Shown here one piece after another: positions 3,001-24,000 of a DNA stretch of 64,000 bases. The stretch spans positions 70,726 to 134,725 of the forward strand of contig JBKBRF010000015.1 in the NCBI GenBank assembly GCA_046292385.1, written 5' to 3'. The stretch comes from Armatimonadota bacterium (GTDB lineage Bacteria > Armatimonadota > SYMT01). Each line of letters starts with the position of its first letter. Position 1 is the first letter of the stretch. Made by a program: the position numbers.

Positions 3001-6000
3001 TGCCGCACGACCTTCAGGTCAACGACGTGCGGATCGCCCTCACCCGGGCGATCGACGGACACCCCGGACTTCGCCTCGATCTCTGGCTCAACACCCGGGA
3101 GTCGTATGATGCATTCGCTCCCGGACGAGTGCTTCGTCCGGATGGCTACTTCCGATTCTGGCAGGGAGACGTACTCTTCTCGTTCTACCTGGAAGTGGAT
3201 CGAGGGACGTGCAACTTGCCCCGCTGGGAAGCCAAAGTGGAGCGGTATCAGGAGTACCGGGAAGATGGTCACTACACCGCTCGCCACGGGCTCTCCCGGT
3301 TCCGGGTGCTGGTGGCCGCTCCCAGCGCCGCCCGCCTGGAGAACCTCCGCGCGGCGACCGCGAAGGTGGTCAGCCGCAGCTTCTGGTTCGCGCTCACCGG
3401 AGAGCTGGGCGCCATCGCCGGTGTCGCCGCGCCGATCTGGCTGCCCCTCTCTGGCACGGCTCCCCGGCCTCTGATCGAGTCTTCAGGAGAGTGAGGATGC
3501 CCTGGTACTGCGGGTACTGCAGCGCCTGGAACAAGAGCACGCACCGGGTATGCCCGAGCTGCGGGCGCCCGGCGAAAGGGCGGCTCTGCCGGCGCTGCCG
3601 CGCGGACGTGCCGAAGGACGCGAGCTACTGCACCAATTGCGGCAGCTCTCGCCTGACCGAGGCTGCGGTCCGCAAGCTGCCGCTGCCCACCACGCTCCCT
3701 TTGCGCCTCGCGCTTCTGGCTGGCATCCTGCTCCTCCTCTGGTTAGCCATCCACCTGCTGCGGTGGGTGCTACACGGCGCGCTCAGTTTCGCCGCGCACG
3801 CCCTTGTCTGGGTCGTGGTCGCGTGGCTCCTGACCGGCATCCTGCCCCGGCCGTGGGGAGCGAAGGCGCGCGGAGCGGTCTGGACGACGCTGAAGTACTC
3901 GGTCGAGTTCCTCCGCAACCTGTTCAGCTAGCGGCAGGAGGGGCAGTGACACCCCTTGCAATGGCCCGTGCACCGCTGCGCGTATCCGTTACTAGACGCT
4001 GCAGGCACGGGCGCGTGCCTGTACTTCGGGGAGAGTGTCGCTGTGGCTTCGTCGCAGCATCGGCCCGCTCCATCACCTTCCAACGTCGATCTTCCCGCTG
4101 TTGTCCTCTTTGCCAATCCTCCACCGGCCGGCCGGTGATCTACTGGACCCCATGGCCGCCGGACGTCATCCTGACAACGGGACTTGCACCGCGGCGGCCC
4201 AAGATGCGACGGATGGAGCCGCGGACCTGCCGGAGCGGGCGATGAAACGTGAACTGACCCTTTCCCAGGCTATCGAGGCCTATTCCCTGCACCAGGCGGC
4301 GCGGGGCGACTCGGAGACCCACCGCAAGGAGTGCCGTCGGACCCTCGGAGCCTTCGTCTCCTGCTGTGGTGACTTGCCGGCCGCAGGGGTGAGGCCGGAC
4401 GAGCTGCGTGTCTTCATGAACGAGCTGCGGTCCCGGCCCGGGTTAGGCGGCAGAGAGCGGCTTTCCGATCTCACCCTGGCGGCTTACCACCGGGTGCTGG
4501 CCGCCTTCTTCCGGTTCCTGGAGACGGAGGGGCACGTCGAGGCGAGTCCGATGCGGGCCGTGCCCAGGCCGAAGACGCGCCTGCAGCTGATCCGGCCGTT
4601 CTCCGAAGAGCAGCTACGGCGCCTCATTGCGCAGCCGGACCCCGCGAGCTTCATCGGGCTGCGGGACCGCACCCTGATGGTGTTCCTCGCCGACACCGGC
4701 TGCCGGATCTCCGAGTGCCTGGGGATCACCTACACCGATCTCGATCTGGACGCCCGCACCGTCCGCGTGCTCGGCAAGGGAGCCCGGGAGCGAATGGTCC
4801 CCTTCGGGGAGCGGACCCGGCAGTGGCTCGAAGCCTACCTGGCGCGGCGCCGGGAGAGCGAGCTGTCCGACCGGATCTTCGTCAACGAGTTTGGCGAGCC
4901 GCTGACTCGCGGCACGGTCGCCCGGCGGTTCGCCGGGTACGGCCGTCAGGCGGGGATCCGCGGCGTCAGAGTGAGTCCTCACACGTTTAGGCATACCTTC
5001 GCGGTGCAGTGGTTGCTGGGCAGCGGCGATTACAAGGGCGACGCCCTCTCGCTTCAACGCATCCTGGGTCACTCCACCCCGGCAATGACCCAGCGGTACG
5101 TCCACCTGACGAGCGGCGATCTCGGGAGACTTCACGCGAGGCTTTCACCCGCAGACAAATTGTCGGAGGCGCCCCCGCAGGTGGGTCGACGGCGGCGTCT
5201 CCGCTAACCGATAGTCACCGGCCTCTACGGGAACCGACCTATTCATTCTGGGAGGACGCCAGGGAGCTCTTCGCGAATCAGTCAGTAGCTGGCACCCCGC
5301 GATTGCCGCACCTAGCTCTTGGCCGGGTAGAGTTCGCGCCAGCCAGCCGAGGGAAAACAGTCGAAGGGATTGTCCGGTCCTTCACGCATCCGCTGCCGCA
5401 CGCGCGGATGAATGTCGGTCCCTCCCGCCCCGGCGAAGTGCGGCATCCGTCCGCCACGGGAGGGCGCGACCAGAATCTCATTGAGCTTCTCATCCGGGGT
5501 AATCACTTTCCATCGACGACCCGCCAGGATGGCTGGACTCAAAGTGGGGGACGAGGAAAGGTGCTCGTCTTCGATGCCACGTCCTAGGGGGAGATCGGTC
5601 AGGCGTACCTCCGCATGTTCGGAGCGATGCCGGAGGCAGAGGCCTGGCCGCGCGCTTTCGCGGCAAAGCCCAAGAGAAATACGACGGCTTTCTGTCAGAG
5701 GCACTACAAGCTCAGGAGATTGCGCGGAACAGCCTCGACCTTCCGGGAGCCGCTGACCTAATCGCTACCCTAACACGTGATACGTGAAATAGACGCCCCC
5801 GGAGAAACGATGACAAACTCAAGGAAGGCGGTCGTTCTGCTGAGCGGTGGGCTGGACTCGACGACCACTCTCGCGATCGCTCGGCAGCTAGGCTATGAAC
5901 TGTACGCTCTGACCTTCTATTATGGCCAGCGCCATGGATCCGAGATCGAGGCGGCCCGAGAGATCGCTCGCCGATACAGCGTTGCCGAACACGTGGTCGT

Positions 6001-21000: not shown

Positions 21001-24000
21001 CATCGGGCGCTATGCCGGGTTGGAGGCCCGCCGGATCGAGTCGGTCATCATCGACGAGGGCTTCGGCAGCCTCGACCGGAACGGCCGCGATGACATGATC
21101 CAGGAGCTACACGAGTTGAAGCAACATCTTCAGCGGATCATTCTCGTGTCCCATCAGGAAGAGTTCACCGGTGCCTTCGCTAATGGATACGGGATCGCCC
21201 TCGAAAACGGCGGCTCTCGCGTTAGCTTGCTTGAGTGTGGGTAGCGGTCGTTAGGAATCCGATCTCCTCCGCTGGCGGCAGGCAGCATCGCCAGGATCCT
21301 CCCGCGGAGAATGGACAGACCAGGGATCGGCGGAGCGAGGGTCCCTCACTGCCGGCACCAGCCGTTCCCTCTGACTCTCGCTGAGCCCCGACCAGACCCA
21401 TTTCAGGTCGTTCAGGGCCTTGCCCTTCGACAGGGCCGGCTCCTGGCGCTGACACTGGCCCTATTTGCCACGGCGGTTGTACGGCGACTGGTTGGTGGGC
21501 TTGAGGGACACATCCGCGGACCGCGCCTTACCCCGCACTCCTGCTTCGGTCCGGCCGAGCTTGAGACCGATGACACGCGTCGGAGTGTTCTCCTTCGCCA
21601 GCTGCTTCAGCCGTTCGACTTCGGCTGGCGTCCATGCCTTGCCTTTGTTGGCGGGATCTTTGGACATTATATTACCTTACCGTTCGACACTGTGCGATAT
21701 ACCCGTAGGATAGGGCAGGACCGTGGCGCATGGCAACCACGACTATTCTCTGACTTAGTATGGCGCGGCACTGCCGAGGCGGAGGCATCACAATGAACAC
21801 AACGCTCCGGAGCGTGGTCCGCCACTCCTGCCCCGGACAAATCAGAGACGTAGATCCGTGGGACATCGGAGCAGCCACGGACAGCGGTCCTTTGGCCGCT
21901 CAGGAGAGCCGAGAATCTTCGGGTACTCTACGCTCCAACAGGGCTAGGAACCAAGATTCGCCGCTGACGGAAGCGAAGTCCGGGTCGGCGGCAGCTTGTG
22001 ATCGGAGGCGAGGGCTGTCATATATCGCCTGCTCCAGCAACTCTCGACAGCACTCCGGCTCACCGAGCGCGGAGTAGACGCAGGCAAGATCGTAGCACGA
22101 GTTCGTATGCGTCCCTAGCCCGAAGTCTGGCAGGCTCAGCGAGGCCTCTAGGGCGTCCCGTGCCTCTTCGAAGCGCGCCTGACGAAGCAATACGTGTCCC
22201 TCCGCCCAGCGCACTTGAGCGTCGTCCGGGAATTGGGACGCAAGGGCTTCGACCTGTGTGTATGCCGTGGCGAGGAGAGAGTCCAGAGGTGGACCGGGAG
22301 GCGGGAGGAACTCGCCGCGGAGGACTCCTCCGAGCGCTCCGTCCCGCAGAGCGCTTCCCACGGTAACCCAGTCGCGTGTCCAGCATGAAATCAACTCCGG
22401 TTCGCCCTCACGCGCAGCGGCAATTGCTAGGGCGATCCGCAACGCCGGGAGGCAGTAGACCGAAGGAGTGTAGCCGCTCTGCTGAACGACGCTGCCGTTC
22501 TCGATCCGGTGCAATTCGTCAATAACCAACCCGTTACCGTCGCGCACGTGCTCCCGGAACCAATCGGCGGCCGGACGGCGGGGTTGGGCCTGGGATGCAT
22601 CCACAACGGCAAGCGCCGCGCGGTGCGAGCGAGTGACGAGATCTTCGCCCTCCTGGGGCCGATGGATGATCTCGGCCTCGACCAAGCGTCCGTACGCGAA
22701 TTCCCGCAGGGCACCGTATACGCCAATCCACTCCTTTTGCCGATCCGTCGATGGGAGTGCGTCGAGAGCCAAAAGCATTCGGTCACAGAGACAGCGGCAA
22801 GCCCCAAGAGATAACGGAGCGCAGGACCACATCGCCCGGAACACCTCCCCGACGAGAACACTCGACCAGTCGGCCGGCGTGGATGACCATTCCCATAAGA
22901 ACGGCACGGCCTCGGGCTTGGTCACTCGGGCATGGAGTTGGTCGAGAAGAGCTTCTGGCCGGCCGGCCACCTCCGCTCCCATGCCAGCCACGCCGTAATT
23001 CGATGCCGCGCCGATGTGGGACACTAACGGTGCGTACACCTCGGGCACCCGTCCAGCCGATTGCAGGGCCATCAAGAAGTCATCTCGATCGCGGACCACG
23101 TTCGAGCCGAAGACGTGCTGGTGCTGTCGGCAGATGTTGCAAGCCAGATTGATCAACTCGTCGCTTGCCTTATCCGCCTTCAGGACCGCCTGCGCCAGAC
23201 GGATCGCAGGCCAGTCGGCCGGCAGTGCCCTCACCAGGGCCCCAGGATTCTCTAGGTGATCTGCGAGCGCACAGAGGCAGTCGGTACACAGATTCGCGAC
23301 ACGGAACTGCCATTCAGCCGGCTGGCGCTCTATAGGGTGTATCTCATCCCTCTTGTACGCCTGAAGGCCCTCTATCGAAAGCTCGCGGAACGTGGGAAAC
23401 AGCCCGTGGGCAGTGATCTCTGGTGCGAACCTGCGACAGAGATCATCGAGCAGTGCGTAGCACAAGCCCTGGTTGGCTTCTAGGGCCCAAAGGTGGTACA
23501 TGAGCGGCACCTCGCGCGCCGCCTCAGACATGCCGCTGATGTCCAACCCGATCTGCGCCAGCACCGCGACGGATGCGCCACGCAGGGCAAAGACGCGGTA
23601 TTTCGGATCGACGCCCTCCAGATCAGGCACCGAGAGACGCTGGAGCACCTCGCGTGCGTGGGCTGCGGTAGTTGGCGACCTCCCGAGTTGCCACCAGGCA
23701 AGGGCCAGTTCTTCACTCAGAAGTGCTCGCTCGGTGGCGGGCAGTTCTAGCTGTTCCGGAAGAACGGTCGCGGATTTCTCTGGAGTAAGTGCGGCCGCAC
23801 GCGAGAGGATCGCCAAGGCGATTCCGCCGTGCCAAGTAGATAGGACGCCCGACTTCTCAATCGCATCCACCACGTCGGCCGGATGGCTGTCGGCATAGGG
23901 GTAGAGAAGGTCGCAAATTGGCGCCGCAACGACCGCTTCTCTTGCCACAGCCTCAAGCACGTGAGTCCTCACGGGTTCCGGGTACTCCCTTACGAACTCT

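Follow-up and report, generated by a model that had tools for sequence, protein, structure and literature searches.

Gene content of the island

The window analyzed here, a 64,000-nucleotide stretch of an Armatimonadota genome (7.04 Mb, 98.45% complete), encodes between 5777 and 21244 QueC, a TGT-fold protein, HerA, NurA, and a DUF6884 protein, followed by an ECF sigma factor, a peptidase of the M78 family, and the SbcCD operon (Table 1). Every gene named in an initial annotation of this DNA was recovered in its place with Pfam, NCBIfam, and PADLOC. The cassette lies on a lower-GC island (0.61 to 0.65 at 6 to 27 kb versus 0.68 to 0.71 beyond, within the window) with an integrase and a relaxase. 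Neither the cassette nor its TGT-like gene was present in any of 40 relatives of the window's lineage; among related loci, some cassettes are on plasmids. The four minus-strand genes abut or overlap. Base 7638 is common to the HerA stop and the TGT start, and these two genes are translationally coupled in the window; the NurA start that is conserved in the family (10894) lies within the end of the DUF6884 gene, whose stop is at 10891. Family alignments place the NurA start at M47 and the DUF6884 start at M72, each inside a longer open frame.

Table 1. Features of the island and their supporting matches
Feature	Coordinates	Strand	Evidence
FtsK/TraG-type coupling ATPase (island context)	1076..2659	+	Pfam TrwB_AAD_bind 8.3e-12, TraG-D_C 2.4e-7, DUF87 1.7e-6
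Replication-relaxation protein (island context)	2652..3494	+	Pfam Replic_Relax 3.1e-29
Tyrosine integrase (island context)	4035..5207	+	Pfam Phage_integrase 1.4e-35; NCBIfam XerC/XerD-like matches below cut-offs
QueC, preQ0 synthase, converging on cassette	5777..6526	+	Pfam 3.6e-75; NCBIfam TIGR00364 200.5 bits vs cut-off 150.3
TGT-superfamily base-exchange enzyme, new clade	6493..7638	-	Pfam TGT 5.1e-7, 29.5 bits vs cut-off 26.3; PADLOC DpdA 8.1e-5
HerA-family hexameric translocase ATPase	7638..9431	-	DUF87 4.9e-23, HerA_C 6.8e-11; PADLOC HerA 1.7e-60, mad8 1.1e-26
NurA-family nuclease	9407..10894 (open frame to 11032)	-	Pfam NurA 9.9e-8, 32.2 bits vs 21
DUF6884 protein, DpdC/YaaA/ArcS-core fold	10891..11628 (open frame to 11841)	-	Pfam DUF6884 1.8e-9, 38.3 bits vs 30; PADLOC DpdC 5.1e-5
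ECF-type sigma factor, first gene of operon	11829..12467	+	TIGR02937 52.9 bits vs 42.9; Sigma70_r4_2 3.1e-9
M78 protein paralogue, no Pfam match	12331..13080	+	One BLAST family with M78 gene; start probably later than open frame
M78 (IrrE/CapP-like) metallopeptidase	13059..13868	+	Pfam Peptidase_M78 8e-15; PADLOC capP 1.3e-16
362-aa protein, possibly NurA-like	13828..14916	+	Window copy without family; Pfam NurA in 2/9 relatives
637-aa HerA-like ATPase, second HerA of island	14928..16841	+	ESM Atlas
SbcD/Mre11-type nuclease	16872..18107	+	TIGR00619 93.1 bits vs 77.65; Metallophos 1.4e-10
SbcC/Rad50-type SMC ATPase	18080..21244	+	AAA_23 1.2e-16, SMC_N 2.8e-14; sbcc 1.2e-39 (below cut-off); PADLOC LmuB 4.9e-29, mad3 7.8e-15

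Genome-wide searches agreed with the initial annotation on three points: the island QueC is the sole full QueC match, no DndB/DpdB-domain match exists in the genome, and the cassette TGT is distinct from the canonical tRNA Tgt, which sits on a different contig (QueA is also encoded).

The plus-strand operon (11829-21244) that adjoins the cassette is led by the sigma factor. M78-type genes occur as two tandem copies in related operons, and the metallopeptidase is probably a switch triggered by damage or infection. The Pfam NurA match among relatives of the 362-aa protein reached a best E of 0.0039, hhalign to NurA gave no match, and F88 and D90-G91-K92-D93 are invariant in the family. The 637-aa protein had zero Pfam or PADLOC matches; ESM Atlas placed it with DUF87/HerA clusters at a feature score of 0.96-0.97, with a structural TM of 0.66 (by query) against an archaeal HerA cluster. 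The SbcCD operon thus contains a HerA-like gene and perhaps a NurA-like gene.

Conserved residues of the cassette proteins

The TGT-like family is large (1412 proteins at E <= 1e-3 from 8000 candidates scored), and its best 120 relatives share 51-70% identity. Across 34 sequences, D85, F89, H156, G183, D240, and a CxCxxC...H zinc site (C285/C287/C290/H312) were invariant, and D120 was kept in at least 90% of aligned rows. These residues align to D95, F99, D130, H181, G206/207, D256, and the zinc site of DpdA, where they are essential or conserved (PMC10164549). All catalytic and zinc residues are intact, and we propose that the protein is a DNA guanine-to-preQ0 transglycosylase.

The DUF6884 protein has a conserved C-terminal domain of ~85 aa. 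All 23 relatives matched DUF6884, 17 matched YaaA (PF03883, YaaA/DUF328), and 3 matched DUF5591. C81 and K85 of a CxxxK motif and S128 of an LSA..G motif were invariant; CxxxK and LSAxxG motifs are named in PMC11701544. Its fold was closest to YaaA 5caj (VIA Z 10.0) and AF0587 2q07 (9.8; next row 6.9). DpdC itself has been assigned to DUF6884 (PMC12235509) and to DUF328 (PMC12839542, PMC5699537). The protein is of the DpdC/YaaA/ArcS type in fold and motif. Its invariant Cys and Lys suggest catalysis on a nitrile, and we propose that it acts on the preQ0 nitrile in DNA. Fusions of the two enzymes exist as well: 12 proteins of 551-585 aa match this DUF6884 domain and also contain a TGT domain, which has DpdA-like motifs in the single fusion compared.

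HerA retains Walker A residues G206/G208/K209/S210, invariant in 29 sequences. Pfam NurA was matched by all 15 scanned members of the cassette NurA family, in which D140-G141-G142 is invariant. Among 401 sampled genomes, 9 carried this NurA clade and 8 of these also carried the TGT, showing an exclusive link between the two and answering the initial annotation's worry that HerA-NurA merely rides along.

Recurrence of the cassette and supply of precursor

Eighty related loci were fetched with a profile of the TGT-like enzyme. All four genes were present in 35, of which 34 kept the order DUF6884-NurA-HerA-TGT on the same strand, with overlapping genes and across many phyla; DUF6884 was encoded in 53 of the 57 loci whose upstream sequence spans 4.2 kb or more. 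The initial annotation gave similar numbers (31, and 50 of 58 for the upstream DpdC-like gene). At least five alternative modules lie between the TGT-like and DUF6884 genes. NurA-HerA is the commonest; others are HerA with a NurA-like protein of 543 aa (in 11 loci), the SbcCD operon (possibly NurA-like, HerA-like, SbcD, SbcC), a Z1 helicase, and a helicase-nuclease resembling DpdJ/MkoA. The SbcCD-type operon that had been noted near some cassettes was borne out, with an SbcC-type module in 12 of the 80 loci. The four-gene cassette therefore does recur in fixed order across phyla, but its constant part, and the conserved unit, is the TGT-like and DUF6884 pair.

Every middle module type comprises an ATPase and a nuclease, TGTs that are close relatives of each other go with different module types, and some loci lack a class A-type HerA; HerA-NurA is for these reasons better read as a restriction or effector arm. 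Of the two roles first suggested for it, replacement of dpdD-K fits this exchange of modules better than replacement of DpdB. Cassette neighbors are often defense genes, e.g., LmuA-like and Schlafen/pAgo-associated proteins.

Precursor genes occurred in 22 of the 80 loci (YhhQ, 15; QueC, 5 plus the window; QueD, 2; DUF366, 4), or in 20 without counting DUF366. We searched the genomes of 50 of the 80 loci for QueC and YhhQ. QueC was present in 31. Of the 19 QueC-less genomes, 12 had YhhQ in the locus, versus 0 of the 31 with QueC (Fisher p 4e-7, a value that overstates independence because a single phylum, Chloroflexota, accounts for many of the loci with YhhQ). One or the other gene was found somewhere in 45 of the 50 genomes, and neither in 5. 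QueC is an accessory supply gene, and an in-locus YhhQ-type precursor transporter takes its place in QueC-less genomes. The window's own lineage likewise lacks QueC outside the island, with no full match in six same-family genomes and one same-order genome. The island protein is a true QueC and not Cap9/QatC (QatC 16 bits versus 280). The initial annotation had found neither QueE nor QueF; a QueE-like gene does exist elsewhere in the genome, as does a QueD-like gene, both below NCBIfam cut-offs, while QueF was again not found. Because QueC-less relatives of the lineage carry both the QueD-like and QueE-like genes, the role of these genes for the cassette is uncertain. These data show that the cassette depends genomically on 7-deazaguanine precursor supply and, together with the intact TGT residues, the DUF6884 fold and motif, and the fusion proteins, make its link to 7-deazaguanine strong; the complementarity of QueC and YhhQ indicates a need for the base and is not proof that DNA receives it.

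Function of the cassette and its relation to Dpd

The idea that the cassette is related to Dpd, the 7-deazaguanine system of DNA modification, but lacks DpdB and recurs across phyla survived every test that we ran. On balance, we lean toward a Dpd-like self-marking system in which HerA-NurA is the restriction effector. A portable two-gene modification frame (TGT and DUF6884) would form its basis. The TGT-like enzyme would swap guanine in DNA for preQ0, made through the island QueC here and imported by a cassette-encoded YhhQ transporter in other hosts, and the DUF6884 protein would turn the nitrile of the inserted preQ0 into an amide or related group. NurA-HerA, encoded between these two genes, and the adjoining sigma/M78-controlled HerA-like/SbcCD operon would load on DNA and degrade it where unmarked. 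We infer each of three elements: the final base in DNA, the action of the nuclease modules as restriction effectors, and the protection of self DNA by the mark. For restriction to hold, five unrelated nuclease modules would all have to read one deazaguanine mark, a point against it. We know of no defense phenotype for any member of the cassette family; our literature searches found no published description of such a cassette and no published DNA analysis of any carrier.

A machine for modification only, lacking a restriction arm, in which HerA (with NurA) opens or threads DNA for the TGT in place of DpdB, seems unlikely but deserves weight. DpdA requires the ATPase DpdB, and its ATP hydrolysis, to insert preQ0 in vitro (PMC10164549), so HerA or SbcC might serve insertion rather than restriction. 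The genome's lack of a DndB/DpdB domain, the ATPase in every alternative module, the HerA-TGT coupling, and the near restriction of the NurA clade to TGT carriers are all consistent with this. However, a helper ATPase is not universal, since phage DpdA2 expressed alone inserts preQ0 in E. coli (PMC10516641, Table 3). Each module also includes a nuclease, needless for pure modification. The modules are mutually unrelated (HerA, Z1 helicase, SF1 helicase, SMC), as would be expected of exchangeable effectors more than of a single conserved helper.

It is improbable that the cassette acts instead like a type IV system, with the TGT recognizing or removing 7-deazaguanines in phage DNA, DUF6884 binding the lesion, and HerA-NurA degrading the marked DNA. 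Phage DNA does carry dPreQ0, dADG, and dG+ (PMC6884629, PMC10516641), the DUF6884 member YfjM has been reported among binders of abasic or RNA-base lesions (PMC11701544), and TGTs form a covalent intermediate with nucleic acid (PMC10164549). Yet base removal needs no supply of its own, whereas one-quarter of the loci encode QueC, QueD, or YhhQ, with YhhQ placed in the locus exactly in those genomes that have no QueC. The invariant DUF6884 residues Cys and Lys, if the chemistry is read correctly, suggest nitrile catalysis.

Because the TGT-like protein is structurally closer to the tRNA enzyme ArcTGT than to DpdA, RNA has to be considered as its substrate. In its AF2 model (pLDDT 85.3), ArcTGT was the nearest solved structure (VIA Z 29.1), followed by DpdA (24.8) and Cap10 (18.3), and the best NCBIfam match was TgtA (3.4e-9). 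The enzyme could thus modify tRNA or another RNA, or handle a protein-deazaguanine conjugate like Cap10 of type IV CBASS, with the DNA machines separate. We regard this as improbable too: a canonical Tgt is already encoded, the 381-aa protein has no PUA or other RNA-binding C-terminal domain (ArcTGT chains have 577-582 residues), DNA enzymes are partners in every architecture, no CD-NTase was seen, QueC is not of the Cap9/QatC type, and the DUF6884 fusion compared has DpdA-like TGT motifs. We infer that the substrate is DNA, not RNA. In archaea, HerA and NurA share a repair operon with Mre11 and Rad50, and the best NCBIfam match of the cassette HerA is a repair-type model (4.5e-48), but it is scarcely credible that ordinary double-strand-break repair genes (HerA-NurA, SbcCD) adjoin an unrelated TGT by chance. 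The co-occurrence of the NurA clade with the TGT has already largely ruled this out; the fixed order of overlapping genes in many phyla, the location on an island and plasmids, and the absence from all 40 relatives also speak against it.

If our reading is correct, the locus is an undescribed relative of Dpd, portable across many bacterial phyla on a mobile island. The cassette enzyme shares its catalytic and zinc residues with DpdA but falls below the DpdA equivalog cut-off (NF041059; 18.7 bits versus 200) and is not an equivalog. The DUF6884 protein is homologous to DpdC and to the catalytic core of ArcS. The Dpd system has DpdB and the dpdD-K restriction genes; the cassette has no DpdB, and HerA-NurA would be its analogue of dpdD-K.

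Operon layout and the surrounding island

Two divergent operons lie within window positions 5777-21244. The minus-strand genes are tightly packed, and HerA (a HAS-barrel/DUF87 ATPase with an invariant Walker A motif) and NurA domain proteins are encoded side by side.

Genes of the cassette and of the adjoining plus-strand operon (operon 2), in window coordinates
Feature	Position	Strand	Remark
QueC gene	5777-6526	+	Converges on TGT gene; 3' ends of both overlap
TGT-fold protein gene	6493-7638	-	Start and HerA stop have one base in common
HerA gene	7638-9431	-	
NurA gene	9407-10894 (open frame 9407-11032)	-	Conserved start M47; overlaps DUF6884 stop
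DUF6884 protein gene	10891-11628 (open frame 10891-11841)	-	Start M72 by family alignment
Operon 2	from 11829	+	ECF sigma factor, two paralogues (second with M78 peptidase domain), 362-aa, 637-aa, SbcD and SbcC/Rad50-like proteins

The SbcC/Rad50-like ATPase of operon 2 is 1054 aa long, and the 362-aa and 637-aa proteins had no match in Pfam, PADLOC or NCBIfam. The head of the operon, with its sigma factor and M78 peptidase, resembles CapP/IrrE-type switches (PADLOC capP, 1.3e-16), bearing out the likeness to CapP claimed for the peptidase in the initial annotation. By analogy with such switches, which are triggered by DNA damage or infection, this suggests that operon 2 may be induced under either condition. 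In the tandem pair at 12331-13868, the gene ahead of the M78 peptidase encodes the paralogue, which no longer has a detectable peptidase match; the pair is retained in related SbcCD-type operons. A promoter and terminator scan of window positions 5400-12600 gave no signal exceeding shuffles. The single public sequencing run containing the stretch is a DNA run of a hot-springs metagenome, possibly its source, and no RNA run is listed as containing it.

A TraG/FtsK-type coupling ATPase, a replication-relaxation protein and a tyrosine integrase are encoded upstream of the cassette. GC content is 0.61-0.65 at about 6-27 kb of the window, compared to 0.68-0.71 beyond, and the low-GC stretch begins about 10 kb ahead of the window start; the island is therefore roughly 37 kb. 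Neither a flanking tRNA gene nor att sites were found. Further cargo includes an RHS-repeat protein and a 1588-aa TPR/AAA_16 protein. The latter (21900-26666, minus strand), at the right island end, matches AAA_16 and TPR weakly and a "TPR end-of-group" domain at 8.6e-12, and may be a STAND-type NTPase. The former, of 1254 aa, lies upstream of the window (L089:10041-15384, about 60.8-66.1 kb of the contig) and is followed by a 495-aa open frame; GC there is just 0.52-0.55, and the stretch, which lies at the distal end of this low-GC region, resembles a polymorphic-toxin locus.

The TGT-like protein and its DUF6884 partner

The TGT-like protein belongs to a large and well-conserved family (1412 proteins at E <= 1e-3 among 8000 candidates scored; 51-70% identity for the best 120 relatives). 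In an alignment of 34 sequences, D85, F89, H156, G183 and D240 were invariant, as was the zinc site C285-x-C287-x-x-C290 ... H312, and D120 was present in at least 90% of rows. Profile alignment to PDB paired the conserved residues with the ArcTGT motifs DSGSF, LDIPTP and FDSAS, and with GDCGAF, IDST and the CxCxxC-H site of DpdA. For DpdA, mutation identified D95 as acid/base and D256 as nucleophile, and the base pocket is lined by F99, D130, H181 and G206/207 (PMC10164549). The AF2 model of the TGT-like protein was confident (pLDDT 85.3), and the protein has the TIM-barrel fold, the catalytic aspartates and the CxCxxC...H zinc site of the TGT superfamily. VIA Z was 29.1 to ArcTGT (1iq8; 318 aligned, rmsd 3.2), 25.1 to bacterial TGT, 24.8 to DpdA (7ui4), 23.4 to QTRT2 and 18.3 to Cap10; Foldseek agreed on the TGT fold (E 5.6e-12), and BFVD gave no structural match nearer than those to TGTs in PDB. 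The protein lacks the RNA-binding domains that ArcTGT has at its C terminus. The protein did not reach the cut-off for the DpdA equivalog (NCBIfam NF041059, 18.7 bits vs 200; PADLOC DpdA at 8.1e-5, over residues 59-131 only) or for the TgtA equivalog (35.6 bits vs 350), and tblastn found no match among 50,697 phage records (E <= 1e-3). Given the conserved residues, the fold, the failed cut-offs and the lack of a phage match, the TGT-like protein is a separate clade of the TGT superfamily, predicted to be catalytically intact. Canonical Tgt and QueA are encoded elsewhere in the genome.

The partner protein matched Pfam DUF6884 above cut-off, as did 23/23 aligned relatives; 17/23 also matched YaaA/DUF328 (PF03883; best 3.9e-6), and 3/23 weakly matched DUF5591 (best 0.0023). 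Residues 70-222 of its model aligned with E. coli YaaA (VIA Z 10.0, 146 aligned) and with AF0587 (2q07; Z 9.8, 124 aligned), which we take to be an ArcS-like protein, and the next row scored 6.9. Both relatives came from VIA-align; Foldseek with the whole model returned nothing at E <= 0.001, and sequence profiles of the DUF6884 and NurA proteins, and of a 543-aa protein found in related loci, had no match in PDB. PADLOC DpdC models matched at 5.1e-5 and 8.6e-4. The motifs that Pfam's curators give for DUF6884, CxxxK and LSAxxG (PMC11701544), are both kept, with C81, K85 and S128 invariant. DpdC itself has been placed in DUF6884 (PMC12235509) and in DUF328 (PMC5699537, PMC12839542). By sequence and fold, the protein belongs to the DpdC family, at family or clan level only. 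DpdC converts dPreQ0 to dADG in DNA (PMC10164549), and the ArcS core (DUF5591), with its PC-X3-KPY motif, yields dG+ from dPreQ0 when co-expressed with a phage DpdA (PMC10516641). At its C terminus the DUF6884 protein has a further conserved domain of about 85 residues (232-316 of the long frame), with W271, K283 and W284 invariant, for which no search gave an explanation.

Thirteen longer proteins matched the DUF6884 gene at E <= 1e-8, 12 of them (551-585 aa) with a Pfam TGT domain; in these twelve (P0122-P0133) the DUF6884 domain is N-terminal and fused to the TGT domain. In the fusion compared, P0125, the DUF6884 domain occupies residues 12-166 and is 33% identical to that of the window. 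Because its TGT part has DpdA-like motifs (GDCGAF; a CxCxxC site, then FRGANRNKRRGAHN), P0125 is a DpdC-DpdA fusion form. Such long forms were seen only from the DUF6884 side, and searching from the TGT side found none. In one 671-aa protein, DUF6884 is joined to a NurA 60% identical to that of the window; this may be a read-through call, since the DUF6884 and NurA genes overlap.

Exchangeable modules and precursor supply

A profile of the TGT found 142 encoding stretches in one-genome-per-species contigs, and the best 80 loci were kept and annotated by tblastn, open-frame clustering and family HMMs on six-frame translations. Two of these, L010 and L011, have identical TGTs and probably come from one organism; five begin <500 nt from the TGT, and L082 had no match in the 10 kb upstream of it. 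Among loci with at least 4.2 kb upstream, the DUF6884 gene was present in 53/57 (50/58 in the initial annotation, which had likewise placed it there in most); two of the four exceptions are class C loci (see below) whose flank ends within the long operon.

Five module types accompany the pair of TGT-like and DUF6884 genes. The four-gene order already noted as recurrent, DUF6884 > NurA > HerA > TGT (class A), was found in full in 34 of the best 80 loci and totals 41 with L048 (DUF6884 match downstream), L061 (cut) and five loci cut at HerA. The 34 include L083, with fragmented NurA and HerA matches: at L083:3700-10000 these appear only as many short fragments in differing frames, the TGT frame being still open, and the locus looks like a decaying class A copy. 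Class B is DUF6884 > HerA > 543-aa protein > TGT (11 complete, 4 cut), with a HerA about 25% identical to that of class A. Class C has DUF6884 > sigma > M78 paralogue > M78 > 362-aa > 637-aa > SbcD > SbcC > TGT on one strand (L076 and L081 complete; L016, L073, L068 and L080 cut; L069 degenerate); in L018, L020, L031 and L045, the SbcCD-type operon is divergent or convergent to the pair. Class D is DUF6884 > Z1-domain helicase > TGT (L028, L034 and L053; L025 without a DUF6884 match). In class E (L027, L078), a 1447-aa PD-(D/E)XK and SF1-helicase protein (PADLOC MkoA 9.8e-40, DpdJ 8.2e-30) is followed by DUF6884, divergent from the TGT. L008 has DUF6884 > TGT alone before the contig end, and with it and the exceptions given above every one of the 80 loci is accounted for. 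Classes A and C are combined in the window, L067 and L072, so that an SbcCD operon does travel with the cassette in some genomes, as had been proposed.

Every one of the five module types pairs an ATPase with a nuclease. The cassette HerA did not qualify as a repair-type or known anti-phage equivalog (NF040819, 164.1 bits vs 970; NF042944, 147 vs 850; NF042943, 110.2 vs 800). In two loci without a NurA match, the initial annotation had read another HerA-family ATPase and an unknown 540-aa protein, the arrangement of class B. The 543-aa protein had no Pfam or PADLOC match; it has an invariant R-D-G-S motif, and all of the Atlas clusters closest to it bear NurA (feature score 0.95). The 637-aa protein of the window resembles HerA both in Atlas features (0.96-0.97, DUF87/HerA clusters) and in structure, with a TM of 0.66 by query against an archaeal HerA cluster, and 2/9 relatives of the 362-aa protein weakly matched NurA (Pfam, best 0.0039). 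Hhalign of the 543-aa and 362-aa families against the class A NurA family gave no match, and we treat the NurA-like reading of both proteins, from Atlas features and the two weak Pfam matches, respectively, as a lead only. Going by the Atlas, structure and weak Pfam matches, variants of HerA plus NurA seem to make up three of the five module types.

In a quick maximum-likelihood IQ-TREE tree of 79 TGTs, grouping was mostly by host phylum. Module types were mixed inside well supported clades, and for class A alone the starred branches require no fewer than 11 changes. Around a stable frame of TGT and DUF6884, the modules have been swapped time and again. By record titles, the hosts span about 15 phyla, in keeping with the recurrence in many phyla reported initially: Chloroflexota, Cyanobacteriota, Planctomycetota, Acidobacteriota, Bacteroidota, Rhodothermota, Deinococcota, Pseudomonadota, Gemmatimonadota, Armatimonadota, Actinomycetota, Bacillota, Nitrospirota, Thermomicrobiota and Melainabacteria. 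Two class C loci are plasmid-borne in cyanobacteria, L073 on p6912-1 of Chlorogloeopsis fritschii PCC 6912 and L076 on plasmid5 of Tolypothrix tenuis PCC 7101. Calothrix sp. PCC 7103 (L081) and Nodosilinea sp. LEGE 07088 (L013) are further cultured carriers. The TGT-like gene occurred in 0/40 relatives of the window's genome. Across 401 genomes sampled from one carrier's phylum, 9 matched the class A NurA profile and 8 the TGT profile, all 8 within the 9; in 6 of the 8, NurA and TGT lay about 3-4 kb apart on one contig.

Defence neighbours of the loci include LmuA-like and Schlafen/pAgo-associated proteins. On the cyanobacterial plasmids (L073, L076), a ParA-like gene comes after the class C system, together with one for a 1407-aa protein whose N-terminus is LmuA/DUF4297-like (2.2e-15; L073:12664-16887), a further defence gene of the same island. 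Within a few kb of the cassette, L014, L015, L026, L035, L057, L058, L060 and L082 all have a gene for an ABC-transporter ATPase, adjoined in L014 and L026 by an ABC-3 permease and a FUR-family regulator (a Znu/Zur-like set); this linkage may reflect chance, the zinc need of the TGT or a Zur-regulated GTP cyclohydrolase.

Precursor genes were found in 22 of the best 80 loci: YhhQ in 15 (a queuosine-precursor transporter family; TIGR00697, 122 bits vs 50.95), QueC in 5, QueD in 2 and DUF366 in 4. The type strain of Adhaeribacter aerolatus (NBRC 106133, L070) has QueD > QueC > DUF6884 > NurA > HerA > TGT on one strand. Whole genomes were searched for 50 of the 80 loci, with fuller flanks kept and 30, mostly short contigs, dropped. 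QueC was present in 31/50 cassette genomes and absent from 19, and a locus YhhQ occurred in 12/19 QueC-less genomes versus 0/31 with QueC (Fisher p 4e-7, overstated because many YhhQ loci come from Chloroflexota). QueC or YhhQ was found somewhere in 45/50. At L079:11007-11700, a remnant of QueC (60% identical, 18% of length) converges on the TGT as in the window and adjoins YhhQ; the genome has no QueC, and this looks like replacement of QueC by YhhQ caught midway. DUF366 (PF04017, 7.3e-60) adjoins the cassette in L032 (3-671), L036 (from ~1600), L037 (from ~1630) and L067 (from ~1013). Three of these genomes were searched and had no QueC, and YhhQ stands beside DUF366 in two loci; DUF366 may be an unrecognised 7-deazaguanine salvage gene.

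The island QueC is a true QueC, passing the TIGR00364 equivalog cut-off (QatC, 16 bits vs 280). Among 41 genomes searched, including the window's own, 22 had QueC matches at 1e-50 or better; in six genomes of the same family and one of the same order, no match was better than 1.4e-7, and that one covered positions 2-61 of 210. QueE-like orthologues occurred in 5/6 and QueD-like orthologues in 6/6 family members of the window's genome (60-74% identical). The genes lie in the window's genome (G000) on contigs C48 and C56 (L005:1447-1887, L006:1402-2256), with relatives in G001-G006. Both are on one contig (C62) in genome G011, which speaks for a true queDE pair. Of the initial statement that QueE and QueF were not found, the QueE half is partly answered by the QueE-like gene, and QueF, like YhhQ, was indeed not found in the window's genome (98.45% complete). 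The preQ0 pathway of the family is apparently incomplete, and it is completed by the island QueC in the window's genome alone: in a lineage with QueD- and QueE-like genes and without a full QueC, the island therefore would supply the missing preQ0 step.

Interpretation and comparison with known systems

Linkage to preQ0 supply genes is seen in the QueC that adjoins the window cassette, in 22/80 loci and in the complementarity of YhhQ and QueC, and we consider a substrate link to the 7-deazaguanine base well supported. DNA is the likely acceptor, since every architecture pairs the TGT with translocases, helicases and nucleases that act on DNA, the DUF6884 protein is of the DpdC type, fusions of DUF6884 with a DpdA-like protein occur and the genome has a separate tRNA Tgt. 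From their ATPase and nuclease make-up, their exchangeability, their defence-gene neighbourhoods and their mobile context, we infer that the middle modules act as effectors of restriction. In MADS, too, a single DNA mark serves two ATPase-nuclease modules, which sets a precedent (PMC13662399). The main rival to effector function, less likely but plausible, would have HerA, or SbcC in class C, provide the ATPase that DpdA requires from DpdB. The absence of DpdB (a ParB/DndB-like ATPase) reported initially was upheld, with no PF14072 match in the 98.45%-complete genome or among the recurrent neighbours scanned. The cassette does not fit type IV CBASS (Cap9/Cap10) or Qat, which would have a QueC-like Cap9/QatC and a CD-NTase or QatABD partners: QueC is true, no CBASS or Qat matches were found among neighbours, and Cap10 scored below both ArcTGT and DpdA.

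We rate the cassette as probable Dpd-like 7-deazaguanine DNA marking of unusually clear modular design. To our knowledge, Dpd is the only cellular system that writes 7-deazaguanines into DNA. The loci described here would form a second, compact and very modular family, with two modification genes and one swappable two-gene nuclease engine. Being compact, modular, spread over about 15 phyla and present in cultured cyanobacteria and a Bacteroidota type strain, this family would be a far simpler model for the control of nucleases by a bulky major-groove mark. It would broaden known DNA hypermodification in bacteria and would assign bacterial HerA-NurA a clear function in immunity. The replacement of QueC by YhhQ shows that defence islands come with a metabolite supply of their own, a rule that should help in the search for other cofactor-dependent systems. 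We hold a bolder picture to be rather unlikely, namely, that TGT and DUF6884 are a portable "chemical self-mark" for at least five unrelated ATPase-nuclease engines. In the commonest of these, HerA-NurA, an end-resection machine familiar from DNA repair in archaea, would be an immune nuclease, and 7-deazaguanine marks would halt or license its run along DNA much as Chi acts on RecBCD, but by chemical means. This picture would add new deazaguanine chemistry, its enzyme having a DpdC/ArcS core and an extra C-terminal domain that is reader-like, and would make DUF366 a new salvage gene.

In the literature searched, with supplements and two key Dpd papers outside the search, we found neither the combination of NurA with a TGT or DpdA nor this gene pair described, which agrees with the initial description of the system as undescribed. 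The nearest described system appears to be BREX-related capture (BRC; HerA/FtsK, GNAT, TGT), a proposed defence system that likewise has a HerA/FtsK translocase with a TGT homologue; its authors also note the lack of DpdB, and of a DpdC homologue (PMC12839542). Within the literature searched, BRC is the sole published co-occurrence of HerA/FtsK and TGT in a proposed defence system. Unlike our loci, BRC is described with PglZ, BrxC-like DUF6079, a STAND NTPase, DUF4007 and GNAT and without NurA. None of PglZ, BrxC-like DUF6079, STAND NTPase or DUF4007 was matched among 16 window proteins (Pfam, PADLOC), nor was a GNAT seen.

As in archaeal and Deinococcus end resection by HerA-NurA with Mre11-Rad50, HerA and NurA genes are adjacent here, and the island has SbcD/Mre11 and SbcC/Rad50 beside a second HerA-like gene. 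However, this HerA is far under the repair-type equivalog cut-off (164 vs 970), the genes are mobile, occur sporadically and invariably accompany the TGT/DUF6884 pair, and a sigma factor and an M78 peptidase stand at the head of operon 2. The methylation-associated defence system (MADS) also has one DNA-marking activity and two non-redundant ATPase-nuclease modules per locus (PMC13662399), and our HerA and SbcC match mad8 (1.1e-26) and mad3 (7.8e-15). Of the mad1-mad8 set, only these two were matched, by generic ATPase parts. In contrast to MADS, the mark here would be a 7-deazaguanine rather than m6A, with no methyltransferase among the genes scanned, no kinase and other nuclease families.

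Phage DpdA systems (DpdA1-4 with QueC, Gat-QueC, ArcS2) put preQ0 into DNA without DpdB, as is proposed here, followed by a nitrile-acting enzyme (ArcS2, DUF5591 core), and DUF5591 is touched here by the 3/23 weak matches and by the 2q07 fold match. Those systems protect phage DNA, whereas ours are cellular and island-borne and carry nuclease modules. Dpd itself (DpdA-DpdB-DpdC plus DpdD-K; Salmonella Montevideo and other bacteria) has in common with the cassette the catalytic aspartates and zinc site of its TGT-superfamily enzyme, a partner from the DpdC family (DUF6884/DUF328), an island location, frequent linkage to preQ0 synthesis genes and YhhQ, and a modification pair adjoining helicase and nuclease genes; a DpdJ-like helicase-nuclease stands beside the pair only in the two class E loci. 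The cassette lacks DpdB, and among 16 window proteins PADLOC matched no Dpd component besides DpdA and DpdC, and thus no DpdD-K. It differs from Dpd further in its TGT, which is no DpdA equivalog and is equally far from DpdA and ArcTGT, in the extra conserved C-terminal domain of its DUF6884 protein and in its effector, which would be NurA-HerA or one of four other modules set between the modification genes.
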